64,000 nucleotides of DNA. Origin: a virus. A program made the position numbers and the translations under genes. Each line of letters opens with the position of its first letter. The stretch's first letter is position 1. The notes beneath the pieces are model-generated. The model had not been told where the DNA came from and did no database searches. It worked only from the letters and a program-made list of their open reading frames with translations. The stretch lies in the IMG/VR virus record IMGVR_UViG_3300031918_000006, positions 1 through 64,000 of that record; one strand, 5' to 3'. This document shows positions 18,719 to 64,000 of the stretch, one piece after another.

Positions 18719-18733
18719 TATATACAATAGATA

Positions 18734-19707: not shown

Positions 19708-19712
19708 GAATT

Positions 19713-20483: not shown

Positions 20484-20516
20484 ATAATGCTTTATTAATT
20501 TAAAATATTTTAAACT

Positions 20517-21494: not shown

Positions 21495-21520
21495 GATTAT
21501 TTTTATAGACTAATTAACCG

Positions 21521-21553
21521 AAAGGTAGGTAGGGTAACCTATCTACCTTTTTT
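21521..21553 (+). terminator. Intrinsic terminator
   Basis: AAAGGTAGGTAGG-GTAA-CCTATCTACCTTT-TTT. Confidence 0.85.
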
Positions 21554-21565
21554 AATATAACACCA

Positions 21566-22243: not shown

Positions 22244-22245
22244 CT

Positions 22246-23384: not shown

Positions 23385-23386
23385 GG

Positions 23387-47700: not shown

Positions 47701-49945
47701 CTTTGGTTTAGAAGATGGAGAAAAACCTGATTTAAAATTCCTTATGGATATTAAAAACTCTGTATTCTATGGGGCAGGTGAAGATAAAATTATGGAAATC
47801 CTTAAAAATAAAGGAATTGATAATATTGATAGTTTAAAAGTAGTTGTGAGAGCTTCTATGTATAATCCTGTTACCGATACTGACAATTCTAAAGTTGTAA
47901 GTGGTAAAAGGGATGCTGATCAAGAGTTAACTACAAAAGATGTGTTTTTAAGGACGGCTTTAAGAATTGAACGTTCTGATAATACTGGAAAGTTATCGCC
48001 CTTTTATATTACTTTAGGTGTATTTTCTTCTCCTAAAAGTACTTCAAAATATGATTATAAAAATGATGCTAAATTAAGTGATGTACTTAAAGATGTTACT
48101 GCTAAAGCAGAATTAGCTTTAAAAACTTCACCTAGTGTTGATTTAACAATTAATCATAGTAATCCTCTTGAGTTATTAAAATATACTACTAATATTCAAC
48201 TTGATTATTTAGAAAATCCAATTAGTTTTAAAGATTTTAAAGAAGATCTTAGTAGATCAGCTGTAGTTTCTCCTATTCATATTTTTACTGGACATAACAG
48301 TGCAGTAGCAGGCAGTCCCTCACAAAATCAGAGATTAAATGAGTGGATTAAAAAGGGAAATAACTCAGCTAAAGAAAGATCATTGGCCGGGAGGGCAGTA
48401 GTATTTGTATCTTTTGATAATAATTTAAAGTCTAGTGAATTAGCAGATAAATTTGCAGAAGAGATTATGACTAATAGTCCTAATCCTAGAGTAAAAGCTG
48501 TGATGTTAAATTCTAAAGGAACTGATCCTAAAATTTGGTTCGAAAATGCTTGGAATACTTTAGCAGATGCTAAAAAGAAACCTACTGAAAGAGTTGCGAT
48601 GGGAACTTTAGCATCTCAACATATGGCTACTTTTATGGCTAGTACTATTAAAATGATGGCAGACTCTTCTAAATATACAGGAAAAACAGAGATCATTAAG
48701 ACTATTGCAAAGACTATAATTGAGAGACTTGGTACTGGTGAGGGTAATATGAATATTTTAGAAATAGATAGAAATGCAGAAGAAGCATTTAGATGTAAAG
48801 TTAAAGCTTATACGGATGATAAAATTAAAAATCCAGAAGAGTACTTAGCCTCAGCTGCTGCTGGTTATCTTAAATTAAAACCAAATCAAAGAATCTCTGC
48901 TTTTAACTTTAACCATACTTATAGATTATTAGTAGGCATGGGTATAGCAATGAATGGAGGTTTACACTCTGAAAGTGCAGAAGTTAAGCAGTATTTTGAA
49001 CCTATTTCTAAATATACAACTCAATATGGAGAATTTTTAGAAGAATTTTATAGTTTACTTAGAAAGGAATTTGTACATGGTATATTTTCACATCCTTCTT
49101 ATAATATTAGAGGGCCACGTACTAATAATGATTATGCTCAAATAGTAGAAAATGAAGAGGATGATTTTGAAGTAACAGCTCGTGCTACACTTCCTAATTC
49201 ACTTTTAAATCTTCAATTAGTTATGGATAATAAACAGTCTTTAAATAAAGAACAAACTGAAAAATCTAGAAATTTATCAAGTATCTCTGATTATATAACT
49301 TTAAGACAAAATAGTATGTCTACAGAAATGATTGAGGAATTTATTAGAGGAGCTGGTGCCATTAGAAACTTATATGATGTAGGAAAAGAAACCTCTGTTG
49401 CTGCAATTATGTCAAATATTGACGCTCTTTATGATAAATTATCAAAAGCAGTGTATACTACCTCTAATTTAATAGACGGTATTAATAAAATGCAATGGAC
49501 TAATACTGAAGTCTCTCAAAAAGATGTAAGTAATCCTGAGAATAAAATTCAGAATAATGGGGATGGTTCTTTTGTAGTTACAGGAAATAATGGTAAATTT
49601 GACTTCGAAATAAAATATAATATGAATGAATCAATCGAAGAAAATAAAATGAAAATCACTACTAATGAAAGACCTATTCCTTTAGAAGAAGTTGGTAACC
49701 TTATACAAAAAACTACTGATTTAGTAAATAAATTTAAAATGCAATACTCAGACATTATTCCTGAGGATATATTTGCAAATGTATTAAGTGCTCTATCAAC
49801 AGGAACAAGAGAAATAGTACCAGGAAGTGCAATGCAAATGGCATTTGCACAATTATCTGCACAAGCTCTTACATTAGATGATGAAGCATTACTAAAAACT
49901 TTACATGACTACACTAATACAAAAGACATCAATACTTGTAACTAA
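41789..49945 (+). CDS. Giant virion protein with hydrophobic N-terminal region and SF1 helicase-like P-loop domain
   Basis: 2718 aa with motifs GVPGAGKS (near 46190), IFLDE (near 46600), LGDSLQ, VQGLEYD and YTLTTRS, plus an EGTEE..EQ..Q motif and candidate TM helices. Confidence 0.8.
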   Translation: MENTKDTNDWVAANLALPGAPIEEFKQNNITPENTTLKDKDFYKGTKTIQETFTNPENGKFDDDKYNQFYNSMLFTYNEYANQDAVGKADKDFDYAPFDMFAPQNAKRVQDLYKIEKVRNPFKTKVGIEDFNYKSKPALSLEEIAQDNNVRDHLTGKVLDWTPNDDSATGIFDFLKRPTLVVGQYDEDGEHYDEFEGRKIKHRKGDYKLDADGKPYFETLGDREVYNREVLNWSDTLTKEGTWLNKYDFMDSDGLDKSHIGSVMKMAAKVTPLFIPGVGEIYAAGILGVDLMNVVPILLKAGIGSVIGDRDTDKDYWKTMNKVQGVGKTLSANSVSDYAKTSTFSFENISSMLGDVFTQLYTQRAIASIPKYIGMNKASVEPLKEVAEHFDDATIAKIFEGSLTTGERHMILEKVPEAANYIDRAVKSAKLSRALATTYMSATSAAGVADQAKAIGLDERDTGLLYLGTSLGFFGMMTSLPIGEWALKGIGLEETGLLVNRGIKDAAQPFVEDLKKLGSTMVKTPRDFQKIFKIGKAIGDAVGKKLSHVDGYLGAMASEGTEEVTEQVMQDSITNIYNGLASLGITSTQDPKKQFTYGDTSDIVANYAMNFFGGVAGGAMFRFHDQIANGSRENDESTKDIYWLIRNGYKDKLDAATNKLIQKGYFGSTTLTAEQVDIDLPGAGRKTVMRPKRDGDLSQNEVIGRTMLGLFNNVQNQIFQEGIQPDSALTRVLDARYDLIVKDLKVNSSLYEDHTALVNDILGLNNDIAKALAVPADLNSPESTVLATAESVNAMQIKLAEKREALKLITSGEAFPSYQSQALFNMSQVLNGAFGNTSADDLAWNKYKKHYRGLNETEKKDIDEEYVAWKAANKKDALKSGYRTFNFLNEKFSPRLAELAKYAEQRKGHYTLVDELGNKNKFNLSANTLAEISKSKSYLGKTLTVSEALNDAIKGKKDVNSILKAVDDIMGFVTNPSIDRLDKNFTNEMRDVFDGLTLNDLIGENASLFDTLSEDENFNEEGLPGTDYDLLSIDDLLNENLTSVFNKLDAAKLHNKDNQRALNTITKITSYILGNPNVNLMNSKKAEFEQAVHGRTINTLNELLDQFDFLQNGTKSTITQLLTNEFEALGKVNDINDYQIYNPNTIENLESAKVLLERLQALVIASTEYDHKKHGISGYNSIINNTFKGSQLGIITQEQATPLLKEIQQINAKIELFLTLSAFNKESKVKNNIASGINMETLFFGHLQEGSFRNMLDSLKIEEEEFITPDMAKSIEDAKTIKRSLEIKQSKEGELPSSDEEVFQFEAERLKINKVFFERVKELNLKYGEDKIHELLFNNTLAKQLFPVAQMSHATPTNFNTTTTQIQPLDLFIWWNTMVTEDPAEFYTELRGDETEPGKYDGIETSKYVPFYAQEYSAKIILSFLDNKSWINKSLNYLGGVDTEGAAITGTFMGKLHETFKNLVFVNGVPGAGKSSAVGYTVAKILKKRGKTFWTAGAYDTQAKQLETLLENPTANVSFNKTRLLAQFLIPEAVTEITNSNASCLGKGSMTDIVTKLAENKLIKLNRVVEKQEGKEYEKLKVGEIKPEAFLEINRSTLPAAIFLDEITHLSMIELEALRQSLIRLGEDAPLIIGLGDSLQNGFRIAGEDHNMDMFRTWNTPKLAGSLRTSNDLKNTNLINTVARYSMITEAYDKVFTEQSVDYAAVKANIESMHNPDDESTWYKLGHHTNEMGIVFGEKVSNALGVSKDLKNILDNTIGTVGFITDNNTSENEILSGLTPSQKSRLDIKSITDVQGLEYDHIVIDVDWNALAQDTPMGPLNFISNVYTLTTRSRVGSLILDRNFSTNNYLVVKSQEANQVIDVTLDKEILKKFKEKRVEDVTKLANFFEGTTSVTPKIKSKDVTPAILPVSATESFAQEIKRMDEEIEAAEAGNSSTNRQMPTLDLAQKNTHLMTYPYYERVGVPGEDALIFGLEDGEKPDLKFLMDIKNSVFYGAGEDKIMEILKNKGIDNIDSLKVVVRASMYNPVTDTDNSKVVSGKRDADQELTTKDVFLRTALRIERSDNTGKLSPFYITLGVFSSPKSTSKYDYKNDAKLSDVLKDVTAKAELALKTSPSVDLTINHSNPLELLKYTTNIQLDYLENPISFKDFKEDLSRSAVVSPIHIFTGHNSAVAGSPSQNQRLNEWIKKGNNSAKERSLAGRAVVFVSFDNNLKSSELADKFAEEIMTNSPNPRVKAVMLNSKGTDPKIWFENAWNTLADAKKKPTERVAMGTLASQHMATFMASTIKMMADSSKYTGKTEIIKTIAKTIIERLGTGEGNMNILEIDRNAEEAFRCKVKAYTDDKIKNPEEYLASAAAGYLKLKPNQRISAFNFNHTYRLLVGMGIAMNGGLHSESAEVKQYFEPISKYTTQYGEFLEEFYSLLRKEFVHGIFSHPSYNIRGPRTNNDYAQIVENEEDDFEVTARATLPNSLLNLQLVMDNKQSLNKEQTEKSRNLSSISDYITLRQNSMSTEMIEEFIRGAGAIRNLYDVGKETSVAAIMSNIDALYDKLSKAVYTTSNLIDGINKMQWTNTEVSQKDVSNPENKIQNNGDGSFVVTGNNGKFDFEIKYNMNESIEENKMKITTNERPIPLEEVGNLIQKTTDLVNKFKMQYSDIIPEDIFANVLSALSTGTREIVPGSAMQMAFAQLSAQALTLDDEALLKTLHDYTNTKDINTCN

Positions 49946-52900
49946 TGAGAAATAACTGCGGTTTAATATCAACGAACGCGTCCATCGAACTGATGGGCGT
50001 GTTTAATAATTTTATAAAAACACTCTATAAAAAAGGAGCAAAAAATAACTATGCAAGATTAGAGGATAAAATTGCAGAATATCTATATGACAAACATAGG
50101 AAAGACGACAAAAATGATGCTTTAACTCCTGAGGAGAGTCATTTTATTGAACAACAGTTTATTTTATATACAGCTGCTGTTAAACCTATTTTAACTAAAA
50201 GTAGAATAGATACAAAATTTGCAGAAAAAATATGGGGAGATTCTACAGCCGTTAAACCTATAGAATTGTTTTTGGCTGATGTACAGAAAGCATTAATAGA
50301 GGGGAGTGAAACTACATTAACAGAAAAAGTTAAAAATTTATATGAAGTTTCTCCAGAAGATACTTCTTTAATTCCAGCTCCTAAAGAAGAATTAATTCCA
50401 ACACCTCCATTAGAAGGTGAAACTAAAATTACTAAATTCACAGATATTAGTAATAAAATGGATTTAAAAGAAGTTTTTGCAAATGCAAATACTGCTTATT
50501 TATTATTAGAGAGAAGAGTTTCTAATCATATTGTTAGGAATTATTTAATCAATCAAGAAACAGGAGTGTATAACTCTTCAAGTAATTCTGTTGATAAATC
50601 TGTAAAAGCTAATAAAACAAGAATCTATAAAGAACTTATTAAGAATTTTGAGCAAAAGGGAATTAAATTTGTTGATAGTGAGAGAGATTATTACGTTAAT
50701 GGAAGAATTAATGATAACATTAAGAGTGTATTAGATAGAATTGCTGATTATTATAAAAAATATGATGGGACTGGTATAACTAATATCAAATTAGAAGAAT
50801 GGACACAAAATAATATAAATGAGATTTCTGATTTTATAAATTTTGTTACTATCTCTAACTTTGATAATTTGCTTTTATCTTATGGGAAAGGTATATTCAA
50901 AATTTCTGATAGTTACCTAAACTCAGCTAATGAAAAGTATGATGAACCTAAATATGTTTTAGATATTGCTAGTAATATCAATGATAGTATATTTCAAACA
51001 GGTGAATATAACTTATCTGATGAACAATCATCATTGTTTAAGATGTTTATCTCATCTATGCCTTCTGTTACATTTGATAAACAAGTTTCTCATGATAAAG
51101 AAATTGATTTGAATACTGTAAATACAGTAATGGCTAAATTATTACATGGAAATCTATTAGAAGGGGCTCCTATATATGATCCAACAAATAGTATGGAAAG
51201 TATGAAAGCTTTACTTGAATTTGCCATCAATAATTTTACAGGAGAAGGTAAAAAAATAAAGAGTTTTGATAAAATTGAAAAAGACACTTTACTCTCAGTT
51301 TATATGTACTTTTTCAGAAATAATGATGAACTTACTACTAAACATCCTAAAGTTCTATTAAATAACTCATTAAGATCAGCTATACAAGTAGCTTATGGTA
51401 ATGATACTGAATCTGGATTTAAAAATATCCCCTCATTTTATCATTTAGCCTCAAATAGTGAAGTTATTTCTGGGATGGACTACTTTAATGTTATAGTAAG
51501 TAACTTTGATAAAACATACTTAAATGAGTACACAGAGTATACCTACGATAAAGACCGAGGAACCATTACTGTAAATAGTCCTACTGAAAGATTAATTAAT
51601 AGTTCAGAAATTCAATTCACTAATAATTTAAATAATTTTATTAATCAAGAGTTTAATAAGACTTTCTTAGAAAATAGATATAAAGATGTTACTATTGAAG
51701 GTAAAGAGTCTGATATGCCTACAGTAAGATTTGAATTATCTAAAGGAGTATTTATTACAGCTAATTTAGCAAACGGTGGTATCTCAATTACAGATGGTAT
51801 TAAAACTACTGATTCTAAAGCACTTGATTTTAAAATAAGTCCTATACAAGAACAAAAATTAGTAGAAATTTTAAATAAAATCTTACCCCAATTACAATTA
51901 AGAGATGATAAAGGAAATGACTTTTATTATCCTCTTTTTACTCAAGTATTTTCTCCTACTCTGGATGATCATGTAGAAGCATTAACAGCTCTAGCTAAAG
52001 TGGCTGGATATGTAGCTTATACTTCATCTATGGTTAATGAAATAGGTAAAGATGGTTTATTAGGTAGTAAATGGATGAAAAATTTTGGAGCAGACAAGTC
52101 ACCTTATATTAAAGATGATGAGGAGTTTTCTATTGCCAGAATGTTTCCAGGTTATAGTGATATAGCTAAAAATATTGGTAAAGGACTCTCTATTATTAAT
52201 GGTGAAACACATAAAGCTGTAATTAAAGTAGGTAATGTTACTGTTCCTACAATTGGAGAAGTAAGACATTTATATGCTCTTCCTAAATGGAGGAATTGGT
52301 TAATCAAGCAAAATGGTAATAAATTAACTGGAATGCCTATTGCTAGTAATCTATTTATGAGAAATCCTGATTTTTTAAAAGGATTTAAAATTAGAAGTTT
52401 TGTAAAATCAGGTGATAATGTGAAACATTCCTCAGAGATGGCACCACTTGAAATAGCAACTACTTTCATAATGCATGACTATATAGCAGCTGCTAATAAA
52501 TACAATGAAGTTTACATTCAATCTACAGTATTCGCTGATAAAAATAGCCATAATAGTGTAGTTGTAAAACTAAATGAAGAAATTCAAATCCCAGGAATTA
52601 CTAATAAAATCTCTCTCTCAAATGTAACAGCTACTGAATTAAAACAAGCTGCTTTTTTGAATAATGCTACTTATTATAAAGCTATCTCAGATAAGTTAAC
52701 TTCTACTTATATACCAGTGCTACAGACTCTATTGCCTGGGACTACAATTGAATCTACTTTACAAGGAGTTCATGATGCCATGAGCAAAGTTCAAGAACAG
52801 GATTTTAGAAATGCTTTTTATAAACATTATAATGGAAGTGAGTATATTATTGAAGATTTAGGAATAGAAAAGAATAAAAAAGATGGCACATGTGGTTTAT

Positions 52901-55900
52901 CTCCTTTATTAATTTACTATACTGAAATGTATACTGATAAATCAAAAACTACTCCTGCTTTTACAAAAATGATGAAAGCTAACGAATTGCTTTTTGCTAA
53001 AAGTTTAAACTCATATAATATGAATATTGAGTACATGGATGGTAAAGGAAGTCTTAATCCTTTATTTATTCGTAAGGGTACCTCAACTATTTTTGATACT
53101 TTAAAAATAGCAGATGAAAAAACAGGAGATAGAATTACTAAAGAGAATTTTGAAAAAAATTGGGTAGATCCTTCTACAAAATACTTAACCATTTATAAAG
53201 GAGGAGAATTAAATCCTTTGCTTAGACATTATTTTTACATGGATAACTATATTTCTGAGAATTTATCTCAAGCTAGTATGGGGACTATTCATAATCATCC
53301 ATTTAAAGGAAAAGCTAAGGCTAAACCTGGTACTTTTGAGTTCTTTACTGAAATAGAATCTGCTAAAACAGCTGCTATGTATAAAAGACAACTTCAAGGT
53401 ACTCCCATGAAACCTTTGAATTTAAATTTAATCAATGGTGTACGTGAAACTATGAGTTCTGTATTTTTAACTGATATAAATAATCCAGTTTATACTAGTT
53501 TTGGAATTAAAGATAAGATGACAGTAACTGACGGTTCAGCGCAAGTAACCCCTTTACAATATATTCTACAAAACAATTCATTACTAGAAAATTCAGTTGG
53601 TCCTAATGCTAAGATGTTTAGTTTATTTATGGATCCAAAGTATAACTCATATGGTTTAACTAAATATGCAGAATTTGGTATTACTAATGAAATGATTCAA
53701 AATTCTAAAGGTTCTACTTATGATCTTATGAATTTAATAGAAAAAAGTTACAGGTATAAACCTTTTACTAGGAGTATTACTATTGAGGAATTTAATCCTA
53801 ATACATTTGATTATGATAAAACTTTAGTACAATATACTCCAGATATCTTAAAAGATTTTAAGGGTAATAATATAACTATTGAAACAATTGCTCCTAATGG
53901 ATTATTCTATGTAAAAAATGATCAAGTATATGAGATTAAATCTTTAACAAGAGGTACTACTATAACTCAACCTTCTGGAGAAGTAATAGTAGCAAAAGGA
54001 GAATCAAATGATTTTCAGGTGCAGGCTATAAATTTAACCACTGGAATGGCCGAAGTTCCTAAATCTGTTAAAATAAATGATTTATTTGATTTATGGCAAG
54101 CTTTGGGGGCCGAAAATTCAGTATCTATTGATAAAGAAGGACAATATTCTGGTAGTAGAAATCCTGGAGAGACATTAAACTTTACTGAATCTGATGCTTC
54201 TCATTATGCTTTAGCAGAATTTGTAAATAGAGTAGGCCATAAAATGGATTCTAATCAAAAGGTTAATTTAATCAATAAATATGGTTTAAGAGATCTATCA
54301 GATCCACATACTAATGCTATATACTCTAAAGAAACTGAGGCTAATTTTGTAAAATTATTTCCAGAGTTTAAAGTAAATAAAACTGACTTTAAAGTACACA
54401 ATCAGACAAATACATGGCAACCTTTAAAAGCAATGTTCATTGGAAAATATATCCACACATCTGCACAAAAGTCAGGTGCTATAAATGTGCATAATATCGA
54501 TGATGTGTATAACCAAACAAAACCAATTTATCCAGTAGATGTTCCAGCAATTTCTACAGGATTACTTATGACTACAGAGCATGAAGTAGAAGGCTCAGAG
54601 ATCACTAAAATGACTCAAATCTATAGTGCTATAGAATTTATGGGTGATTCACATAATGTGTCTAGTGGGGTTTATAATGCCATTGCTGACGTCTTAAATA
54701 TTAAACTTAAATCTTTATTTGATGCTACTGAATTCCAAAATGTAAATAAAGAGGCATTATATAAAGAAGTTACTGACAATTTGATTCGCACATTTAACTC
54801 TAAAGACCAACAATCTATTGGTAAGTTCATTGGACAGATGGTAGAAAGAAATTCAGACGAGATAAAAGCATTTACAGCTCAAGCCAAAGAAGCCGAAGCT
54901 ATCACAGAAGATGCTACAGGTGAAGAGCCTGGAGTAGCTAGTACTATGAGTATGAGTATAGTTAGAGATGGTAAAAGAATGCCTTTTAGTACTTATATGT
55001 ACAGTTCTTTTATATCTCTTATGAGTAATTTTTTAAATAAAGAGGCTATTAAAGATAAACAGTCTGGCATTGCCTCTCCTATTAAACCTTCTGGAGGTAT
55101 GCTTCAAGTGTATGATTCAGAAGATATTAATGGTAAAAAAGATGTACTTTTAAGAAAAAATTACGATAAATTAAATGCTGCTGAAAATATAGTGGAAGCC
55201 CCAATTACTATTGGAGAGATTTCTTTAAATGATTGGGTAAGAGAAAGTGATGGTAAAACTATGAAAGAGTATCAAGTAAATACTCCAGAAAAGTTAATTG
55301 CACTTAAAAGAAAGGATACAGGAGAATCTGTTCCAGTTCAAACTTTTAAAGGATTTTGGACAAGAGGTACAGTACAAAATGATACTAATAATGTTTATCT
55401 ATTTGGCGATAATACTAACGATAGGATGGTTACTAAATATATTCCTGGGGCAACCCAAGCTGTTATTAGAGGACTTCCTAATGCTATAGGAATTGATACA
55501 AAGAGAGATAGAGGTACTACAAGTAAATCATTCTTAACAGATGCTGATCTTCCTTGGTTTAAATCACATGTAGACGAGCAATTAAAGAAAGCACAAGCTT
55601 TAGGTAAACCTATTATCCTTCCAGAAGATGGAATTGGAACTGGAAAAGCTATGTTAAAAGAGAAAGCTCCTGCATTATTTGCATACTTAAATGAGGCTCT
55701 ATCTAAATTAGAAACAACTAAACCTTCAAAAGTAAAATTTGTAAAATTATATGGTAAACCAAGAGATTTACAACCACCACTTTTAACTTTTAAAGTTATA
55801 GGTAAAGGAATGAAAGAATCTCCTATGTCTATTTATGAATTACCTGATTTTGCAATGGTTTATGACTATAAAGAAATTTTGGAAGATAAAAAACCCATGA

Positions 55901-57549
55901 CTGCAGAGTTAGGTTCTTTTTTAACTAAGAGATTTCCAGGAGAAAATATTGAGAAATTAATGAAGAATACCAAATTAGTAAACAATGCTTTACGAGTTAA
56001 TATTCAAAGTATTTTTAATAGAATTGATACTCAACATAATGTCTTAATTAACGGAAAAGAGTATCCAGTAGAAGTGTTAACACGTTCTTCTGGGGAAGCC
56101 ATTGGCCCAAATATTTATAGAACTATGTTTGACTTACCTAAGGGAACTTCAGTTAATCAAGTTACTGAAGATTTCTTATTTCAAAGAATGTATGATAAAT
56201 CTAAACCTGCTATCAATGATAAAAGTTGTTATGCTTACGTACAGAATCCAAATGGAAATCATATCTACATTTTTAATAAAGTTCCAACTGAATTTACAGA
56301 ATATACTCAAGGTAAACAGATAAAAGAAATTAATGGACAGTATTGGGTAGTAGATGGTAATGGTGATCCCAGATATATAGCCCCATCAGGTCTTACAGGT
56401 ACAGCACTTATTGGTGGAAAAAGAGTAGAAGTAATTGTCACTAATGATTTACCAAGTCTTCAAAAAACTCTTCAAGAGACTAAAAATTATGACAAAAGTT
56501 TACAAACTGGTAGAATTTATAATGTCAACGAAAATAATGATGCTATTCTTAAAGAAGAGTGTGCTATTCTAGCTAAAAAAAGATTTTCTAGTTTTAGAAC
56601 CACTTTAAATTATATTGCAGCACGTATTCCCGGACAAGGTTTCCAATCATTTACTGATTTAAAACTTGTAGACTTTATTCATACAGAAGGTAATACAGTT
56701 ATGACTAACCATTTTACTTCCTGGTTAAAAGGAGAGGATTATGATATTGATAAAGGATTCTGGCTTGGATTAACTCTTAAAAATGGAATTGTAGTAGGTT
56801 GGGCTAATGAATTTGATTATAGCTCAGAAGAATCTCTTATAGCTTCTATGTCTCTGCCTTATCCTGATAAAAAATGGAGAAGTTTAGACACAGAAGATAG
56901 TATTGATGATCCTGCAGAAGTTACACTTACTAACGAAGAAGTAGATAGCCTATTTGAAGAAAATATGTCCAAATTACGTAGTGATACTTTAGTTAAATTA
57001 GGTAATATTGATAATTATAATTTCTTAGGAGAAAATCACACAGCTTATGAAGTACAAGAAAAAGTTAATGAATACTTTATGCAAACTATACCTTTAAATG
57101 CTATGGAAGATGCTGTTAAGAATAAAATGGCTTGGGGTATTAGAGATGCTGTAGTTAAACCTGTAAACTTAAATCATACAGAGTCTCCTATTGGAATGGA
57201 AGAACTTAGAGATGAAGCCACGGAAGCTAATAGAGTTGTAAGTAATAATAATCCAATGAGTAAGGCTGATTTTCAATATGCAAACATGGTTGGTAAGAAT
57301 GTAATTGGTATTGCAGCTGTTGCATTAAAGATTTGGAGTGCTGCTTCTTTCTACGGAAATGATAAAGTAAAAAAGGGAGAATTTGCTTCTATATTAATGG
57401 ATAAAAATCTCAAAATTAACGGAAAAAATCGTTATATTGCGAGCCAAGCAAACCTTAACTTTAGTGCGAAGGCTTCTACTGTAATTACAGATGAATATAT
57501 TGCTGATCAAGTAGGTAAAAATAATATTGAGGAAAATTGTAATGGATAA
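49945..57549 (+). CDS. Virion RNA polymerase, catalytic (double-psi beta-barrel) polypeptide
   Basis: 2534 aa with TDG (near 53527), RIPGQ..QS, and the metal-binding DxDxD motif in GEDYDIDK (DYDID at 56737-56751), comparable to DFDID of phi14:2 gp66. GKNVIGIAA lies near the C-terminus. Confidence 0.88.
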   Translation: MRNNCGLISTNASIELMGVFNNFIKTLYKKGAKNNYARLEDKIAEYLYDKHRKDDKNDALTPEESHFIEQQFILYTAAVKPILTKSRIDTKFAEKIWGDSTAVKPIELFLADVQKALIEGSETTLTEKVKNLYEVSPEDTSLIPAPKEELIPTPPLEGETKITKFTDISNKMDLKEVFANANTAYLLLERRVSNHIVRNYLINQETGVYNSSSNSVDKSVKANKTRIYKELIKNFEQKGIKFVDSERDYYVNGRINDNIKSVLDRIADYYKKYDGTGITNIKLEEWTQNNINEISDFINFVTISNFDNLLLSYGKGIFKISDSYLNSANEKYDEPKYVLDIASNINDSIFQTGEYNLSDEQSSLFKMFISSMPSVTFDKQVSHDKEIDLNTVNTVMAKLLHGNLLEGAPIYDPTNSMESMKALLEFAINNFTGEGKKIKSFDKIEKDTLLSVYMYFFRNNDELTTKHPKVLLNNSLRSAIQVAYGNDTESGFKNIPSFYHLASNSEVISGMDYFNVIVSNFDKTYLNEYTEYTYDKDRGTITVNSPTERLINSSEIQFTNNLNNFINQEFNKTFLENRYKDVTIEGKESDMPTVRFELSKGVFITANLANGGISITDGIKTTDSKALDFKISPIQEQKLVEILNKILPQLQLRDDKGNDFYYPLFTQVFSPTLDDHVEALTALAKVAGYVAYTSSMVNEIGKDGLLGSKWMKNFGADKSPYIKDDEEFSIARMFPGYSDIAKNIGKGLSIINGETHKAVIKVGNVTVPTIGEVRHLYALPKWRNWLIKQNGNKLTGMPIASNLFMRNPDFLKGFKIRSFVKSGDNVKHSSEMAPLEIATTFIMHDYIAAANKYNEVYIQSTVFADKNSHNSVVVKLNEEIQIPGITNKISLSNVTATELKQAAFLNNATYYKAISDKLTSTYIPVLQTLLPGTTIESTLQGVHDAMSKVQEQDFRNAFYKHYNGSEYIIEDLGIEKNKKDGTCGLSPLLIYYTEMYTDKSKTTPAFTKMMKANELLFAKSLNSYNMNIEYMDGKGSLNPLFIRKGTSTIFDTLKIADEKTGDRITKENFEKNWVDPSTKYLTIYKGGELNPLLRHYFYMDNYISENLSQASMGTIHNHPFKGKAKAKPGTFEFFTEIESAKTAAMYKRQLQGTPMKPLNLNLINGVRETMSSVFLTDINNPVYTSFGIKDKMTVTDGSAQVTPLQYILQNNSLLENSVGPNAKMFSLFMDPKYNSYGLTKYAEFGITNEMIQNSKGSTYDLMNLIEKSYRYKPFTRSITIEEFNPNTFDYDKTLVQYTPDILKDFKGNNITIETIAPNGLFYVKNDQVYEIKSLTRGTTITQPSGEVIVAKGESNDFQVQAINLTTGMAEVPKSVKINDLFDLWQALGAENSVSIDKEGQYSGSRNPGETLNFTESDASHYALAEFVNRVGHKMDSNQKVNLINKYGLRDLSDPHTNAIYSKETEANFVKLFPEFKVNKTDFKVHNQTNTWQPLKAMFIGKYIHTSAQKSGAINVHNIDDVYNQTKPIYPVDVPAISTGLLMTTEHEVEGSEITKMTQIYSAIEFMGDSHNVSSGVYNAIADVLNIKLKSLFDATEFQNVNKEALYKEVTDNLIRTFNSKDQQSIGKFIGQMVERNSDEIKAFTAQAKEAEAITEDATGEEPGVASTMSMSIVRDGKRMPFSTYMYSSFISLMSNFLNKEAIKDKQSGIASPIKPSGGMLQVYDSEDINGKKDVLLRKNYDKLNAAENIVEAPITIGEISLNDWVRESDGKTMKEYQVNTPEKLIALKRKDTGESVPVQTFKGFWTRGTVQNDTNNVYLFGDNTNDRMVTKYIPGATQAVIRGLPNAIGIDTKRDRGTTSKSFLTDADLPWFKSHVDEQLKKAQALGKPIILPEDGIGTGKAMLKEKAPALFAYLNEALSKLETTKPSKVKFVKLYGKPRDLQPPLLTFKVIGKGMKESPMSIYELPDFAMVYDYKEILEDKKPMTAELGSFLTKRFPGENIEKLMKNTKLVNNALRVNIQSIFNRIDTQHNVLINGKEYPVEVLTRSSGEAIGPNIYRTMFDLPKGTSVNQVTEDFLFQRMYDKSKPAINDKSCYAYVQNPNGNHIYIFNKVPTEFTEYTQGKQIKEINGQYWVVDGNGDPRYIAPSGLTGTALIGGKRVEVIVTNDLPSLQKTLQETKNYDKSLQTGRIYNVNENNDAILKEECAILAKKRFSSFRTTLNYIAARIPGQGFQSFTDLKLVDFIHTEGNTVMTNHFTSWLKGEDYDIDKGFWLGLTLKNGIVVGWANEFDYSSEESLIASMSLPYPDKKWRSLDTEDSIDDPAEVTLTNEEVDSLFEENMSKLRSDTLVKLGNIDNYNFLGENHTAYEVQEKVNEYFMQTIPLNAMEDAVKNKMAWGIRDAVVKPVNLNHTESPIGMEELRDEATEANRVVSNNNPMSKADFQYANMVGKNVIGIAAVALKIWSAASFYGNDKVKKGEFASILMDKNLKINGKNRYIASQANLNFSAKASTVITDEYIADQVGKNNIEENCNG

Positions 57550-60049
57550 AGGATGTATACATACATACAAAGGCGTAGAATATAGGAATTATCAAGATTT
57601 AAAAAATGCATTAATTGAGGAGCAGAGTAGTCACTACTTTGCTCCTTTTATGGCTGCAGTTTTAGAAAAATTAAAGAATAATCCCGATATAACGGGCGTG
57701 CAAGAGATTGAAAAGGTCGTGAAAGAAATTTCTGATCAATTTATGTTGAAAGAAGATGTTAGTTTAACTTTGAGTCAGTTATTAAGTGCTGCTACTGATA
57801 ATGCTAAAGAATTAATCTTAGCTAAAATTAATGCAGGACCTGAAACTGCTGGAGTTTATGCATACTTAACCATGTTAGGAGTTCCTTTTAAAGAAATTGC
57901 TCAAATGATGAAGAGTGATGCAGTTAAATGGGTTATTGAGAATTCTCGTAAAAATATTTTTGATAAACAAACTGATTTTAATAGTATTAAAAGTTCTATT
58001 AAAGAGTTTGAAAATGGCCCTAACGTATATAAATATTTAGATTTTGATAGGGCCAATATTTTTTCTAATATTCTAAGAGATAGTTTAAAAAATAGTACTT
58101 TTTTAGGAGCACTTCCTTATGGTAATATATTTAAAGATCCCGAAGTAATTAAGATTCTCTCTAATACTGATAAAAAGAAAGGCCCAGTCGTAAAAATGCA
58201 TTCTATAGGTGCTTTAATGTCTCCTATAGATATTACAAGTAAAGTTGGAGATACAATAGTAACTAAATCTTTAGATTTTAATATTTCTAGAGAAGATATT
58301 AGTGAATTTTACAAAACTTTGCAAGAAGGTAATTTTATAAAAGAGTCATATGAACCTGTAGTTAATAAATATACAGAAGACGAGGATATGGATATGGGTT
58401 GGGAAGATGGTGAAATTAGAAGTAATAAAATTCCTGTAAAAATTGAGGTATCTAGATTTATACAAAAAATGATAGAATATTTAGATAAAGCTCCAGAAGG
58501 AGACATATCTGAATTTGCTAATATTATGGAAGATTCAAAAGAAGTTCTTATCTTAGGTAGAATGCTTTCTATAAATCAAGGTATTAAAACTGATAGTTAC
58601 TCTCAATATGCTTTTTTTCAGAGAGTTACTGATTATATAATTGAAAAAAGCAAAGGTAAAATGTCTTTAGAAACTCCAGAGAAAATGATGTCTGAGATGA
58701 TGGAAGAAATGCCTACTCATAGAGTAGACCCTAAATTTTTAGAAGAAGTTATGAAAAGATTCGATTTTAAAAAATTTTTAGGGATAGGTTTAACACAAGA
58801 AGACGCTACTATTTATAGAGAAACTAGTAAATTGTGGTATAATAAGATTAAATCCTCCTTTAATATTTTAGCTATTGTCTCTGATACTCCCCATTTTAAT
58901 GCAATGCTAGGAGTTTCCTCTTTAATGGAAAATATGAAAAGCATGCTCTCAGTTAAAGCAAAATTAGTTGATAAATTAATTAAAGATGTTTATGATAAAC
59001 ATATTATAGCTTCAGATTTAACTGAGGAACAGATGGAGTATAAAACAATTGCTGATAAGGACTATTTTAAAATTATGGATTTTGCAAATGATTCTATTAT
59101 ATTAAAGTGGATTCGTTCTTTAGACGACTCTAAGAGAATTTTTGCACATGATTCAAATACTTATCACACTATTGTTGATAATAAGATTGTTAAAGTTACT
59201 GAAGAAAATAGGGAGAGATATCCACGTAAAATTGATGTTAGTAGTGCTGAGGGAAGACTAGATTTTATAGACATGGTTCATGAGATGATGTCTGTGTTAA
59301 AAGATGGAAAATTCTTAGTTAATGGTGAGTATAAAGAACATCCTCTTCTAAAAAACAATGCTTTTATACATTCATTCGATATTGATAAGAAAAGAGATCC
59401 TTTAACTGGTAAAAACAATAAGTTCTATAAGCTTCCTATGAATATATTAAATGTAAATGAAGCTAATACTCATAAGTTTAATAGTTACTTAATTGGATTT
59501 TCAGACTTAGCTAAAATTGAGTATAATGGAGTTAATATACAGAATTTATTATTCTTATATAATACTTTTATTCACAGGGATAAAATTAATAGAGACTCTT
59601 TAACAAAATTGTTTGAATCTTCTACCTCTGGTATTGAACATACTATGATGGGTGATTTTATTAAATGGGCTGGAGATTTTGATTGGAATGAAAAAGAATT
59701 ACAATCTTTATCCGAATCTAAAGAGTATGATTATGATATAGACGATATTATAATTAAAGGATTGGCTACTAAGATCTTCTCAAAAAACTTGGATAGAAAT
59801 GTAGGAAAATATGCTTATGCAGTCTTGTATAATGCTTCTACAGGAGAGTCTACAAAGCAATATTATGAGTGGAACAATAGTGCTAGTACTTATCAAAAAT
59901 ATGATCACTTTAGTAGTGATTTAGCAATAGCTTCTAGTGCGGGATCACAAATTGGAGTACAAAGAGGAAATGCAAATGACTTTAATGCTACTTTAAGAGA
60001 AATCTCAAATAGAGGAATAATAATAAACAATGTAAAAATAGAATGTTAA
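57542..60049 (+). CDS. Virion RNA polymerase, C-terminal part (separate ORF)
   Basis: ATG 57542 (MDKGC...) overlaps the upstream gene end and is preferred to TTG 57527. Contains LLSAATDNAKELIL, the motif that normally follows the catalytic barrel in crAss-like RNAPs. Confidence 0.75.
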   Translation: MDKGCIHTYKGVEYRNYQDLKNALIEEQSSHYFAPFMAAVLEKLKNNPDITGVQEIEKVVKEISDQFMLKEDVSLTLSQLLSAATDNAKELILAKINAGPETAGVYAYLTMLGVPFKEIAQMMKSDAVKWVIENSRKNIFDKQTDFNSIKSSIKEFENGPNVYKYLDFDRANIFSNILRDSLKNSTFLGALPYGNIFKDPEVIKILSNTDKKKGPVVKMHSIGALMSPIDITSKVGDTIVTKSLDFNISREDISEFYKTLQEGNFIKESYEPVVNKYTEDEDMDMGWEDGEIRSNKIPVKIEVSRFIQKMIEYLDKAPEGDISEFANIMEDSKEVLILGRMLSINQGIKTDSYSQYAFFQRVTDYIIEKSKGKMSLETPEKMMSEMMEEMPTHRVDPKFLEEVMKRFDFKKFLGIGLTQEDATIYRETSKLWYNKIKSSFNILAIVSDTPHFNAMLGVSSLMENMKSMLSVKAKLVDKLIKDVYDKHIIASDLTEEQMEYKTIADKDYFKIMDFANDSIILKWIRSLDDSKRIFAHDSNTYHTIVDNKIVKVTEENRERYPRKIDVSSAEGRLDFIDMVHEMMSVLKDGKFLVNGEYKEHPLLKNNAFIHSFDIDKKRDPLTGKNNKFYKLPMNILNVNEANTHKFNSYLIGFSDLAKIEYNGVNIQNLLFLYNTFIHRDKINRDSLTKLFESSTSGIEHTMMGDFIKWAGDFDWNEKELQSLSESKEYDYDIDDIIIKGLATKIFSKNLDRNVGKYAYAVLYNASTGESTKQYYEWNNSASTYQKYDHFSSDLAIASSAGSQIGVQRGNANDFNATLREISNRGIIINNVKIEC

Positions 60050-60050
60050 C

Positions 60051-63000
60051 ATGGCATGTACACTAACGTTCACTTTAGGTGGAATAAAATATAATATACC
60101 TGCAGAAGGTAATCTTGCTGATTATGACGGAAAAAACCTCACAGATATATTAGGATCTTTAGATTCTCATACACAAATTAATTTATTAGAGAATATTTTA
60201 AAATATTCTAACATTCAGCCGTATGATTATGAAGAAAATCCAACTGTAACTAATTTAATAGCTTCTAATAATATTCCGAATATTAGTGTAAGCAAGTTAA
60301 CAGAAAAATTAGGAGATTTAGTTTTACCTGATGGATCTAATCATTTTAAATTACGTCAAGTAGTTTTAAGTATGTTAAATGAAAAGACTGATAAAATATC
60401 TTTAGTTTCTGCACAAATCACAGATGGTTCCAAAAAAGGACATGGAGTATTTATTTCACAAACTGGAAGTATCTATGTGCATGCTAAACCTAATGATAAA
60501 ATTGATACTCTTGAGGATTATTTTTTAGGAAAGGATAGCAAAGTCTTACTAGAACGTCTTGCTCATGAATTAACTCATAGTAAATTAGATGCATTAATGG
60601 TTAATCAACCAGAACTTGCCAAGGAATTAGTTGAGGAATGGAATTCAAAAAAAGGAGGATTATCTGATGAATTTAAGAGTATTAAAAGTAGTATTGACAA
60701 GTTAAAAACAAATGAAGCAAAAGCAAACGAAATTATTGCTTATTACTTTAGTGATTTCCAATTACAAGGGGCTTATCAAAGTAAAACACTAGAAGATGCT
60801 TTTAAAAGTATGGTTTCAAATATAATTCCATTAGAAACAATAGTTTCTACTTCTACTCCTGGCTATTTTGATTCTTCCAATCCATATGAGGATTATGACC
60901 ATTCTAGATATAAGAATCATTGGGATGATCCTGTTTGGCAATATAGACATCCTGAATTAGAACCTCCATTCACAGGAGATACTAATGCTTCTCTTCAAAA
61001 AATGGTTGCAGAGATAGATCCAACTTCTGAGAATTACCAAGCAGATAAAGCTAAACAAATCTTAGCTAGATTTAATGCTAATACCTCTGATATTCAAGAA
61101 AATTCTGAATTTAAATACCAGAAATATGATGTTTCTTATGGAGCACCTATTGTTATTGATGATTTTAATAGAGATATTCAAATCTTAAGATTAGCAGAAA
61201 ATGACTTGGTATTAGTAAGTAAAGATATCTTCCTAAATCCCAAAACAAAAGAATGGGAAGCTAGGCCTACTAAAAAAGGTGAGGAAAAGTCTTCATATCG
61301 TCCTGTTATTAGTACTTATATTAATGCTAATAATGAAGTAATGATTAATCTACCTATTAAAGATGGTAGTGGTAAAACATATTCTCTACCAGCTAAGTTT
61401 GTAGAAAGTTTACGTAAATATGATGGAGATTTAATAGATACTCCTTATAATAAAGAAAAAGCTAAAGAATATGCAGATTGGATGGTTGCTAATGTAAATT
61501 CAGCATATGGTGATGATCCTGCCGATAGTTCTATAATTAGAACTATAGATATTACTTCTAAAACTGGAAAAAGCTTTCAAATTTCAGTGGCTTCTAACTA
61601 TGAATCTTATGGATTTAAATTTTATAACCAAGAATCTGCTAGAGAAATCTATGATGGAGCTGAAGTTGGAGATGTAGTTAAAGTGTTTATAAAAGAAAAA
61701 GGAGATAAGAAAGCGGGAGGATATCGCGCTAAAATACTACGTAAATTTGGAAACTCAGTTGAAGTAGTTACTTCTAAAGGTGCTGTACTTATTGTAAAAC
61801 CCTCTGCTATCAATGAGGTAATCTATTTAAAAGAAAATCATCCAGACTTTTTATCACAAGTAGAAAATATTGATAAAGGGACTATTAGCCAAGATCTTAT
61901 TGATGATGGTAATAGTCAATTTAGAAAATATCGTAAAGTAAATTTTGTATCACAAAATAAAAAAGATGGGGAATTTCAAGATAAGATTAATGATTATTTT
62001 GATATTTATTCAAAAGAAGATTCTGCTATTAAAGTAGAGAGACGTCGCGCTGAAGTTAAAAAACTTAAAGCCGGAGATCTTATAAAGGTTAAATGGTATT
62101 ACACAGATACAAAAACTAAAGAAGATAGAGAAGTGTCACACTGGTATCCAGTAGTTACTAAAACCTCTGATTTAGTTTACTATTACAATTCTACTTCTGA
62201 GAAAGTATCTTCTGTGAATATTTTAGATGGTAAAGGATATGAAATCTATGGATTAGCTATAAATAATACAAATTCTTCTAAATTATTTGATGAATTTAAT
62301 GAAATCAGAAAAAGTATAGAAGGATTACGTAGAGATGATACTGGTACATTACTCTCAGATGATGCTATTAAAAATAACTTAGGAGAAGCTCTTAGAAATG
62401 CAGAACCATCTAGTTTACAAGACATTTATCATATCACAGAAATAGAAGATGTAGATGAAGTAGCAGCTGGAGAAGATAATGACCTTAAATTATCAGTATC
62501 TCAAGTACAAAGAGGTAGTATTGTTAAAGCCTATGTATTTGATATAGATGAAGAAGGTAGAGACAAAAAAACTAAAATTTATAAATGGTTTGTAGTAACT
62601 GGCTTTGATGAAAACACTGGAAGACCTATATGTGTTACACAAACTAAAGATAAAAATGGTAAAACTGGTGTATATAAAGAATATCCAATTGAATTTCAGA
62701 ATATTAAAGCAATAGGTCATAGATTAACTGATAATGCTGATTTAGGAATTTATGGAAATAAAACTCTAAAAGAATACTTAGATAAGTTAAGAAAAACTTT
62801 TGATACTATTAGTGAACCTATTTTTATTACTCAAGCTGAAACTCCTAAATATGAGAGATCAAATAGAACTTTTAACACAGCTTTATATGGTTTACTTAAA
62901 AACGGAAAGATGGGTTATGCAGTGTCTGATAAATATGTAATAGAACAATTTAAAGATAAGACTGATTTTGAAGAATGGAAGAAAAATACACCAGAAGCTA

Positions 63001-64000
63001 AAGGATTAACCTGGACTTATACTGAACCTAAGTTGTATATTTTAAGAGGTAAACAATATATGAAGAAACTCTATATGAATTACTTAGAAGTACACGGTTT
63101 ACTTAATTATGAACCCAACATACATGATAGTGTAAGAATTGGTGATATAGTTACTGAAACATGGAAGTACCAAGGAGATGATGTTAAAATGGACTCTATG
63201 ATTACTGCTAAAACTCCTACAGGATTATGGGTGGAACGTTTAGGAAAAAGTCCTTCAGGGGATTCTATTTCGGTTAGAAAAAAGATATATAGACATAGAG
63301 AAGGAGTTGAATATCCTCAGATCTCAGATGTATACTTACATAAAAAACGTGATACTACCTCAACTTCTAGAGAAGACGCTAAAAGTAGACAAACTAATCT
63401 TTTAATTGGTAATACTCAGTATGAAGAGAAGATTAAAAATCTAGATCAGGAAACTAAAGAAAGAAAAGCAAGTACTTTAAAAAAACCACTTAAAGCTTCT
63501 TTAGATACTGATAATTTCTATAAGAGTAGAGATTCGGAAAGTAAGATTATGGAAATTGTAGATAAACTACAATCTACTTATAATGTGCCTATTATAATGC
63601 TTAGAACTAATGAGATTGCTCAAAGTTTTGGTGATATTTTAGGAACTGATGCTACTAAAGTTAGAGGATTTATAAATGAGGGTAAAGTTTATATAAATTT
63701 AGATAAAGCTTCTTCTGCAGAACCTCTACATGAGATGGCACATATTATATTAGAGAGTATTAAAGCCAATGACTATAATTTATATCAAACGGTTATTAAT
63801 TCTGTTAAGTCTCATCCATACTATGATGCTATAGCTAAAAATTATCCTAATAGGGCCCCGGAAGACTTAGATGAAGAAGTATTTGTTTCTATTTTTGGAG
63901 AAAAATATAGAACAGTTACTCATAATCAATATAATAAGTCTTGGTATGATCAAAATGAAAGTATATTTACAAATATCTGGAATTATATGAAAAATACTTT
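60051..64000 (+). CDS. Giant virion protein with two zincin-like HExxH domains; 3'-truncated by the window and absent from the ORF track
   Basis: Starts MACTLTFTLGGIKY and appears open to the window end. HELTH at 60564-60578 and HEMAH at 63729-63743 are in frame, each with a downstream Glu (ANEIIAY; DEEVFV). Confidence 0.85.
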   Translation, partial: MACTLTFTLGGIKYNIPAEGNLADYDGKNLTDILGSLDSHTQINLLENILKYSNIQPYDYEENPTVTNLIASNNIPNISVSKLTEKLGDLVLPDGSNHFKLRQVVLSMLNEKTDKISLVSAQITDGSKKGHGVFISQTGSIYVHAKPNDKIDTLEDYFLGKDSKVLLERLAHELTHSKLDALMVNQPELAKELVEEWNSKKGGLSDEFKSIKSSIDKLKTNEAKANEIIAYYFSDFQLQGAYQSKTLEDAFKSMVSNIIPLETIVSTSTPGYFDSSNPYEDYDHSRYKNHWDDPVWQYRHPELEPPFTGDTNASLQKMVAEIDPTSENYQADKAKQILARFNANTSDIQENSEFKYQKYDVSYGAPIVIDDFNRDIQILRLAENDLVLVSKDIFLNPKTKEWEARPTKKGEEKSSYRPVISTYINANNEVMINLPIKDGSGKTYSLPAKFVESLRKYDGDLIDTPYNKEKAKEYADWMVANVNSAYGDDPADSSIIRTIDITSKTGKSFQISVASNYESYGFKFYNQESAREIYDGAEVGDVVKVFIKEKGDKKAGGYRAKILRKFGNSVEVVTSKGAVLIVKPSAINEVIYLKENHPDFLSQVENIDKGTISQDLIDDGNSQFRKYRKVNFVSQNKKDGEFQDKINDYFDIYSKEDSAIKVERRRAEVKKLKAGDLIKVKWYYTDTKTKEDREVSHWYPVVTKTSDLVYYYNSTSEKVSSVNILDGKGYEIYGLAINNTNSSKLFDEFNEIRKSIEGLRRDDTGTLLSDDAIKNNLGEALRNAEPSSLQDIYHITEIEDVDEVAAGEDNDLKLSVSQVQRGSIVKAYVFDIDEEGRDKKTKIYKWFVVTGFDENTGRPICVTQTKDKNGKTGVYKEYPIEFQNIKAIGHRLTDNADLGIYGNKTLKEYLDKLRKTFDTISEPIFITQAETPKYERSNRTFNTALYGLLKNGKMGYAVSDKYVIEQFKDKTDFEEWKKNTPEAKGLTWTYTEPKLYILRGKQYMKKLYMNYLEVHGLLNYEPNIHDSVRIGDIVTETWKYQGDDVKMDSMITAKTPTGLWVERLGKSPSGDSISVRKKIYRHREGVEYPQISDVYLHKKRDTTSTSREDAKSRQTNLLIGNTQYEEKIKNLDQETKERKASTLKKPLKASLDTDNFYKSRDSESKIMEIVDKLQSTYNVPIIMLRTNEIAQSFGDILGTDATKVRGFINEGKVYINLDKASSAEPLHEMAHIILESIKANDYNLYQTVINSVKSHPYYDAIAKNYPNRAPEDLDEEVFVSIFGEKYRTVTHNQYNKSWYDQNESIFTNIWNYMKNT

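Follow-up and report, generated by a model that had tools for sequence, protein, structure and literature searches.

A predicted virion RNA polymerase divided between its bridge-helix and trigger-loop motifs in a peat crAss-like phage, and a possible pairing of terminal cysteines at its chain boundaries

Virions of phage crAss001 contain its cargo proteins, whose ejection is thought to take place in a partly unfolded state (Bayfield et al., 2023, PMC10172136), and disulfides between subunits have been seen in the same virions (PMC10172136). In phi14:2, the virion RNA polymerase (RNAP) gp66 (6VR4; GenBank gp077) is a single chain of 2180 amino acids (aa), in which the bridge helix comprises residues 1529–1559 and the trigger loop residues 1598–1636 (bioRxiv 10.1101/2020.03.07.982082). 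Divided large subunits are known from elsewhere. In archaeal RNAP the bridge helix lies in A' (PMC2988716) and the trigger loop in A'' (PMC3737540), and in the Zeta group of crAss-like phages the RNAP open reading frames (ORFs) are broken by stops and frameshifts, with boundaries that vary in close relatives and with "yet unknown expression mechanisms" (Yutin et al., 2021, PMC7886860). Here we describe a predicted crAss-type virion RNAP that is encoded as two chains in IMG/VR virus record IMGVR_UViG_3300031918_000006, which comes from a peat crAss-like phage and of which positions 1–64,000 (hereafter the window, meaning this whole stretch of 64,000 nucleotides) were analysed. We further weigh the possibility that the two chains are held together, like their neighbours, by a pair of cysteines.

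A run of giant ORFs occupies the plus strand of the window at 41789–49945, 49945–57549, 57542–60049 and 60051 to >63998, of which the second and third, P0001 and P0002, encode the divided enzyme. Its features are as follows.

49945–57549, plus strand: P0001, N-terminal RNAP chain of 2534 aa, with DYDID in a predicted beta'-like double-psi beta-barrel, and with the bridge-helix motif; stop codon TAA at 57547–57549.
56737–56751, plus strand: DYDID, the catalytic DxDxD motif (P0001 aa 2265–2269), with three Asp invariant in alignments A3 and A5; it aligns with GSDFDVDK of crAss001 gp50.
57292–57318, plus strand: GKNVIGIAA, the bridge-helix motif (P0001 aa 2450–2458), equivalent to GKSGVGITA (1543–1551) of gp66 and aligned with IGIYA of gp50.
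57445–57462, plus strand: QANLNF, the final conserved motif ahead of a clade-specific insertion; [IQ]ANLNF is kept in the unsplit proteins P0126, P0128 and P0129.
57463–57546, plus strand: new C-terminal tail of P0001, 28 aa (SAKAS..NNIEENCNG), absent from unsplit relatives; Cys2532 is TGT at 57538–57540.
57542–57549, plus strand: ATGGATAA, where the start of P0002, in the +1 frame, overlaps the stop of P0001 by 8 nucleotides (nt), a translational-coupling layout.
57542–60049, plus strand: P0002, C-terminal RNAP chain of 835 aa (MDKGCIHTYKG..) with the trigger-loop motif and C-terminal domains; ATG at 57542.
57542–57637, plus strand: new N-terminal head of P0002, about 32 aa (MDKGCIHTYKGVEYRNYQDLKNALIEEQSSHY), absent from unsplit relatives; Cys5 is TGT at 57554–57556.
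57785–57820, plus strand: SAATDNAKELIL, the trigger-loop motif (P0002 aa 82–93), with T, D, N, A and K invariant in alignment A2; equivalent to AFVDNAKD (1609–1616) of gp66.

A preliminary description of this stretch, made from its letters alone, had placed DYDID and GKNVIGIAA in the upstream ORF and SAATDNAKELIL about 80 aa into the next ORF, in another frame. The coordinates confirm this arrangement, with DYDID lying outside the interval 57290–57830 that had been given for it. The same description held these motifs to be bridge-helix-like and trigger-loop-like and normally to share one polypeptide. Both points are borne out: the gp66 equivalents fall within the published bridge-helix and trigger-loop ranges and keep their order after the DxDxD motif (DFDID at 1361 in gp66), and crAss001 gp50, phi14:2 gp66 and the two MT8354xx phages are unsplit at this site. 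In gp66 some 60 aa separate the two motifs; in the window the chains measure 2534 and 835 aa, the motifs lie about 160 aa apart, and a stop and restart stand midway, so that what is one polypeptide in gp66-type RNAPs is here two ORFs in different frames.

On the predicted structures, P0001 and P0002 together are a split variant of the crAss-type virion two-barrel RNAP, homologous to phi14:2 gp66 and crAss001 gp50, and neither half has a better structural match than gp66. The model of P0001 aa 1935–2534 (predicted local distance difference test, pLDDT, 78.3) has 6vr4_B as its best match among 48,161 chains (Z 8.8, root-mean-square deviation 3.6, 162 aa), followed by the largest subunits of multisubunit RNAPs (Z 4–4.5), and its top 50 Foldseek matches are all bacterial beta' chains (E 2e-4 to 1e-2). 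The P0002 model (pLDDT 74.6) best matches 6vr4_A (VIA-align; Z 10.7, root-mean-square deviation 4.4, 403 residues), its residues 84–804 superposing on 1611–2111 of that chain with residue 84 opposite 1611, while the second-best match reaches Z 4.6; in Foldseek this model had no significant match, with 6vr4_A at E 0.69. Three collinear BLASTP matches join the window RNAP to crAss001 gp50 at the same three motifs, and the N-termini of the two enzymes are alike (MRNNCGLISTNASIEL vs. MSKRCITTNSTIEE).

Sequence and profile searches of PDB chains with P0001, P0002, A2 and A4 gave no match (A4 and A5 stood in for the larger A3 in the PDB search and in folding), and similarity between gp66 and the window RNAP is undetectable by HMMER; the empty searches fit the extreme divergence reported for these enzymes (PMC7886860). 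None of the three giant proteins was assigned to an RNAP family in PHROGs, and Pfam gave nothing significant in P0002 and only DUF7831 in P0001. The latter match (E 9e-25; phrog_2072) marks a discrete inserted domain upstream of the catalytic barrel, at P0001 aa 1800–1917 (55342–55695). Packaging of this RNAP in the virion, its ejection and its use for early genes would be in keeping with its context: its genes close the structural block next to that of a giant zincin-like protein, as in phi14:2, in a genome whose TerL and portal are of the crAss type by sequence comparison; TerL is 44% identical to that of MT835470.1 and 25–29% identical to those of crAss-like phages ranked below the two MT8354xx records.

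The split was confirmed to be genuine and not an assembly error. Window DNA is present in many peat metagenomes, and the segment 57520–57560, which the preliminary description had singled out for an indel check, is bridged without indel by three independent contigs from other peat samples among the assembled Logan contigs; one of them represents a strain about 95% identical, whose only indels are at 57693 and 57700. Relatives L003, L004, L006 and L008 have the same ATGGATAA junction layout as the window; the junction is found in four IMG/VR and JGI contigs with proteins about 80% identical, in which the upstream Cys codon is TGC instead of TGT, a synonymous change. In L007 (54% identity) the register differs, ..NIKEKCNEL and its stop overlapping MSCKYTYKG by 11 nt (ATGAGTTGTAA), and both Cys are retained. 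An assembly indel or a recent inactivating frameshift, for which nothing speaks beyond the frame change itself, is thus extremely improbable: at least six independent contigs have this junction in identical or equivalent form besides the three that bridge it, it is kept in relatives down to ~54–58% identity with both ORFs intact, and it comes with an insertion of about 55 aa rather than a 1-nt slip. The earlier view that the break is no random indel is upheld by the same data.

When P0001 aa 1900–2534 was compared with 1.8 billion representative proteins, 413 relatives were found at E<=1e-3. Most of the 150 listed homologues (of 413) are single proteins of ~3000–3700 aa in which 700–1000 residues follow the match, and among those 150 only P0124 and P0125 end where P0001 ends, these being the upstream halves of L003- and L007-type relatives. 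The nearest outgroups, P0126, P0128 and P0129 (34–39% identity, 3104–3178 aa), are uninterrupted at the site, where they also lack Cys; it is likewise continuous in crAss001 gp50, phi14:2 gp66, MT835470.1 and MT835492.1, the last read with TAG as Gln. By parsimony, sequence comparison thus points to the fission as a derived trait of one small clade. As a side observation, MT835492.1 (L002) has no long ORFs under table 11 and, with TAG as Gln, yields ORFs of 1555, 3401 (the unsplit RNAP), 779 and 1553 aa each containing 42–128 TAG codons; TAG is therefore a sense codon in this relative. Other short, Cys-tipped RNAP forms are P0143, P0224, P0227, P0232 and P0237, and a search for related DNA loci for P0143 and P0232 found none. 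A 671-aa protein from a 2.3-kb contig, P0009, starts with MNKEVIFGK, lacks Cys and may be an incomplete gene call.

The break falls between aa 2534 of P0001 and aa 1 of P0002, hence between GKNVIGIAA and SAATDNAKELIL, and both pieces are kept and adjacent. Within the family, no part of this region varies more in length than the segment from bridge helix to trigger loop: unsplit outgroups have a few residues after [IQ]ANLNF and then the helix preceding the trigger-loop motif, and the window clade has, relative to its nearest unsplit relatives, about 55 extra residues consisting of SAKASTVITDEYIADQVGKNNIEENCNG, the stop/start and MDKGCIHTYKGVEYRNYQDLKNALIEEQSSHY. The insertion, as which ENCNG/MDKGCIHTYKG had been provisionally taken and in the middle of which they indeed lie when P0126, P0128 and P0129 are compared, provides both new ends and both new Cys, with the stop and restart in its middle. 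The earlier placement of the split inside the catalytic region has to be qualified: on the family comparison, the cut falls in a permissive hypervariable linker between the bridge-helix and trigger-loop motifs and not within a conserved motif. In the models, the last residues of P0001 and, in the isolated chain, residues 1–31 of P0002 have pLDDT <50, and a complex prediction for P0001 aa 2184–2534 with P0002 aa 1–420 gave a score of 0.25 (mark 0.32), which weighs in neither direction. At 57790–57834, 45 nt coding for part of SAATDNAKELILAKINAG are matched with 3 mismatches in 42–60 kb contigs of other phages from the same peat samples, so that, among relatives living side by side, conservation of the motif extends to its DNA.

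That a portable stop-restart-linker cassette had been inserted here, as was first proposed, found no support when the junctions were compared. In local alignments against shuffles, the new tail and head bear no significant likeness to other tails and heads (p 0.23–0.42), the L007 head against the head of the next protein being marginal (p 0.013), and no sign was found that the insert copies another junction; only the grammar is shared. The new junction of L007 (TGTAATGAGTTGTAAATA) and the canonical junction of MT835492.1 (TGTTAATGAGTTGTAAATA) both encode C../MSCKY, but in an AT-rich genome such likeness follows from the peptide and is no proof of common origin.

Archaeal A'/A'' resembles the window in being cut between bridge helix and trigger loop, and the mutated Pyrococcus trigger-loop residue Y88 near the A'' N-terminus (PMC3737540) may be set beside the motif at residue 82 here. 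The two differ in that the window cut is an independent event in a very distant two-barrel RNAP, the archaeal subunits assemble non-covalently, and terminal Cys are not mentioned in PMC2988716 or PMC3737540; the resemblance is topological, not by descent. It lends weight to an ordinary fission, after which the chains would reassemble through their native non-covalent interface and the terminal Cys would serve some end-specific role, such as a packaging or ejection signal, portal or tail contact, metal binding or thiol modification. Archaeal A'/A'' and the split beta' subunits of jumbo phages are models for such reassembly, natural splits at this site work without covalent links (PMC2988716, PMC3737540), and the break lies in a variable, insertion-tolerant linker. 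We consider this explanation unlikely though to be taken seriously, for reasons that lie in the distribution of the cysteines set out below.

Recoding would dispense with two chains altogether, since a +1 frameshift, or a ribosome hop from GGA to GGA over TAAA, would yield one polypeptide of ~3370 aa. Upstream of the ORF1 stop, the ORF2 frame does stay open over 32 nt and includes GGT AAA AAT, and each of the three window junctions repeats its final sense codon in the following ORF, either at the Cys or immediately ahead of it (AAC..AAC, GGA..GGA, TGT..TGT). In L007, however, the overlap window spans only 20 nt without the A-run, and the final codon, TTG, is not repeated; moreover, the ATG start is conserved in every relative, the junction RNA fold is not unusual (z -0.73), and the same Cys pattern joins crAss001 gp47 and gp50, which are on opposite strands. 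Recoding is on this evidence very improbable. A hop as a general mechanism was rejected on account of L007 (no codon recurrence) and the opposite-strand crAss001 genes, and a +1 frameshift on GGTAAAAAT was rejected because the site lies outside the L007 overlap window and RNA structure is absent. No Rfam match was obtained at 57000–58100 (E<=1), and no promoter or terminator signal stood above chance at the junction. An SD-like (Shine–Dalgarno-like) GAGGA upstream of the new ATG is probably incidental, such a motif occurring in 2/31 window genes vs. 15% background.

Introns, inteins and split inteins were also considered and discarded: the 8-nt overlap leaves no intervening DNA, Rfam has no match, Pfam detects no Hint or endonuclease domain, and the tail and head measure only 28 and 32 aa. 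Group I introns and inteins do hit conserved catalytic regions of the same RNAP family, and in this they are like the split described here; unlike them, the window has no intervening sequence, ribozyme or Hint/endonuclease domain. The RNAP gene of MT835470.1 (L001 11943–13002, minus strand) has an interruption of ~1 kb just after DYDID, in which two sub-threshold group I intron matches (RF00028) flank a LAGLIDADG_2 gene (E 2e-26). Many homologues stop inside SAATD/NAK or start with MDNAKELIL, P0110, P0168, P0187, P0191, P0222, P0230, P0252, P0261, P0262 and P0266 among them. Neither type of intron-like break, at the DYDID site or at SAATD/NAK, has terminal Cys. It was also observed that many database homologues start at the first Met past the DYDID interruption site (MG..), which suggests a common intron site, and that the SAATD/NAK breaks form a second hot spot of intron-like interruption, within the trigger-loop motif. 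Compared with the fragmentation in the Zeta group, the window has one fission only, which is clean and conserved, overlaps a start and leaves new ends tipped with Cys, whereas many breaks elsewhere in the family are of the intron type.

The cysteines form a pattern that extends beyond the split. The giant proteins are nearly Cys-free (0.1–0.25%), and the following features of the window flank the divided enzyme.

41789–49945, plus strand: giant virion protein of 2718 aa upstream of the RNAP, with 3 Cys, one of them at residue 2717; starts MENTKDTNDW and ends ..KDINTCN.
49937–49959, plus strand: junction 1, TGT AAC TAATG AGA AAT AAC TGC, with the upstream Cys at -2, a stop that overlaps the ATG, and then Cys5 of P0001.
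60044–60059, plus strand: junction 3, TGT TAA C ATG GCA TGT, with Cys835, the final residue of the RNAP, and Cys3 of P0003.
60051–63998, plus strand: P0003, zincin-like giant protein after the RNAP, with HELTH at aa 172; extends past the window end.

By gene order, the 2718-aa protein occupies the place of phi14:2 gp078 and crAss001 gp47, and P0003 resembles phi14:2 gp65 (GenBank gp076) by gene order and zincin-like motif. P0003 contains two HExxH motifs, HELTH at aa 172 and HEMAH at aa 1227, which fits the zincin-like protein beside gp66, and its homologue in L003 is 1410 aa long and ends ..KTCNT, the next protein starting MSKC. A subset of RNAP homologues (P0083, P0063, P0201, P0218, P0238, P0243, P0258 and P0260) has, ~170–180 aa from the C-terminus, an HExxH followed 7 residues later by Cys, and on this sequence feature may include a zincin-like module within the RNAP itself.

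At all 3 window boundaries a Cys stands <=3 residues from the upstream end and another <=5 residues from the downstream start, so the Cys-end/Cys-start signature noted earlier for Cys2532/Cys5 is indeed that of the other junctions. P0002 has exactly two Cys, residues 5 and 835 (the last); P0001 has 5, residues 5 and 2532 included; and P0003 starts MAC. Under random Cys placement, the probability that all six terminal Cys lie <=5 residues from the ends is ~3e-13. Among 114 full-length RNAP representatives, a Cys lies <=6 residues from the N-terminus in 111/114, from the C-terminus in 112/114 and from both in 109/114. All sequences in an alignment of 40 diverse homologues have the C-terminal Cys, and 106/119 homologues of P0002 end in Cys. 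Elsewhere in the window, small proteins of 149 aa (22935–23384) and 143 aa (35378–35809) end in Cys as well (..GFKYC and ..MSKKC), with next genes that lack a starting Cys and no evident partner.

The rule was checked on the window, five relatives and two cultured phages, and the series of chains in named phages read as follows.

phi14:2 (KC821624, L010), 10997–27200, minus strand: gp078 has 1 Cys, its last residue (..SNTIC); gp077, the RNAP, has Cys at 3 and 2179 of 2180 (MAC....KQECK); gp076 has 1 Cys, residue 3 (MSC..).
crAss001: gp47, on the opposite strand, has 1 Cys, at 2339 of 2341; gp50 has Cys at 5, 1334 and 2404 of 2412; gp49 has 1 Cys, at 5.
MT835470.1: the visible part of the first protein (2040+ aa, leaving the locus) has a single Cys, close to its C-end, and the first residues have none; the RNAP has Cys at both ends; the 804-aa middle protein has 2 Cys, one per end; the last protein has an N-terminal Cys only.
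MT835492.1: the 1555-aa first protein of the locus has Cys at 5 and 1550; the RNAP has Cys at both ends; the 779-aa middle protein has 2 Cys, one per end; the last protein has an N-terminal Cys only.

A Cys at the C-end of one chain and at the N-start of the next is thus found in the window, L003, L007, MT835470.1, MT835492.1, phi14:2 and crAss001. The outer ends of the series lack Cys in phi14:2, crAss001 and the window, and the last member of every series examined lacks a C-terminal Cys. Since both the positions and the codons of the Cys vary, the constraint acts on the protein. The crAss001 arrangement differs from that of the window in that gp50 is unsplit and gp47 lies on the opposite strand, and PMC10172136 reports no link between its cargo proteins; gp50 and the window RNAP share the terminal-Cys pattern. 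The ejection proteins of N4-like phages (DEV gp71/72/73, N4 gp50) offer a further comparison, as they too comprise a giant ejected virion RNAP with partners and are low in Cys, which is strongly suppressed and attributed to passage through the periplasm (PMC11445570). They are, however, described as essentially Cys-free, and no terminal pattern is given for them (PMC11445570), whereas the crAss type keeps Cys almost only at the ends. No report of a Cys-boundary rule for crAss-like virion proteins was found in the literature searched. The experimentally studied phage phi14:2, with gp078, gp077 and gp076, provides the cleanest testable case of it.

A natural fusion supplies the converse of the split. 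In P0254 (3570 aa) the RNAP continues into the C-terminal part of its usual downstream neighbour, the zincin-like protein (E 1e-16 against the L003 homologue), and the only Cys of P0254 are residues 3 and 3569, with none at the fused joint. A packaging signal or other end-specific function would be expected on every chain, yet Cys occur only at internal boundaries, as pairs of C-end and N-start, and the fusion has lost both Cys of its joint; these observations stand against a purely non-covalent reassembly in which the Cys serve the ends as such. A new break that gains Cys on both sides, a fusion without Cys at its joint and Cys-free outer ends fit instead a pairing of C-terminal with N-terminal Cys that replaces the peptide bond.

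Which Cys pairs with which could in principle be otherwise. The RNAP might pair its own N-terminal with its own C-terminal Cys, the outer proteins pairing mutually or with that node and the split enzyme forming a two-chain ring. The Cys counts fit this scheme equally (1+2+1 in phi14:2, 1+2(+1 internal)+1 in crAss001), and the two Cys of the new junction would still pair mutually. The middle proteins of MT835470.1 and MT835492.1 (804 and 779 aa), with two Cys, one per end, and the at least four boundaries in the window lineage are accommodated by a chain of neighbours with fewer assumptions, and the RNAP termini are disordered in the crystal, no structure placing them together. We therefore rate the ring as improbable.

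The comparative data suggest, as the best inference, a putative head-to-tail disulfide, and we hold it somewhat probable that the split is a derived fission whose chains are Cys-paired and linked head to tail. On this reading, the fission of a gp66-type RNAP gene fell in the linker of variable length that separates bridge helix from trigger loop, where a clade-specific insertion of ~55 aa supplies the stop, the overlapping restart ATGGATAA, the 28-aa tail ending ..ENCNG and the ~32-aa head beginning MDKGC. Coupled translation would make both chains in equal amounts, and the chains would fold into one enzyme. Cys2532 would pair with Cys5, just as the C- and N-terminal Cys would at the other boundaries, those of the 2718-aa protein, the RNAP, the zincin-like protein and the next protein; the most likely form of the bond would be an inter-chain disulfide made in the virion. 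The nearly Cys-free cargo would then remain a single head-to-tail thread during unfolding and passage through the tail, and the reducing cytoplasm would take the linked chains apart. In the partly unfolded state proposed for passage through the tail, only a covalent link would hold the enzyme halves together and in order, and the near absence of other Cys would prevent wrong pairings. A chain break would be tolerated only where a Cys pair replaces the lost peptide bond.

Several points weigh against this proposal. The pairing is drawn wholly from comparison, as is the earlier view that the junction physically rejoins the chains, and the bond is putative. Virions are assembled in reducing cytoplasm, and there is little oxygen in most gut and peat habitats. 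Both the gp66 crystal and the models show disordered termini, the latter being the models of P0001 and P0002, the tail and head have no detectable homology to other junctions, the Cys counts would equally suit a pairing of the RNAP's own N and C ends, and ~3–4% of full-length RNAPs lack one terminal Cys.

For the family as a whole, the proposal extends to the virion proteins of the crAss-like RNAP module, which would form a disulfide-concatenated thread, ejected in gene order and freed by cytoplasmic reduction, with Cys pair and peptide bond interchangeable so that fission and fusion are both tolerated; we give this generalisation a little less than an even chance. The question it addresses is how the ~0.7 MDa RNAP and partner proteins are stored and ejected through a narrow tail, on which Bayfield et al. 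(2023, PMC10172136) could say only that the cargo must partly unfold for ejection. The rule, by which the proteins are nearly Cys-free and have Cys only at internal chain boundaries, gives a concrete and cheap prediction for two cultured phages, of which phi14:2 has exactly four such Cys: their virions would contain a reducible species of very high molecular weight, with defined cross-links between terminal peptides. Apart from the linkage, the break marks the linker between bridge helix and trigger loop as a place that tolerates splitting, in a two-barrel RNAP only very remotely related to the archaeal enzyme, and such a site could guide the expression of very large enzymes in pieces. The finding is sound; by itself it adds a variant to a familiar theme, the split RNAP large subunit. 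Its value lies in being a natural experiment, in which a new cut acquired Cys on both new ends and a fusion of neighbours left both Cys gone, and which as such is a natural test supporting a general rule for crAss-like virion proteins.

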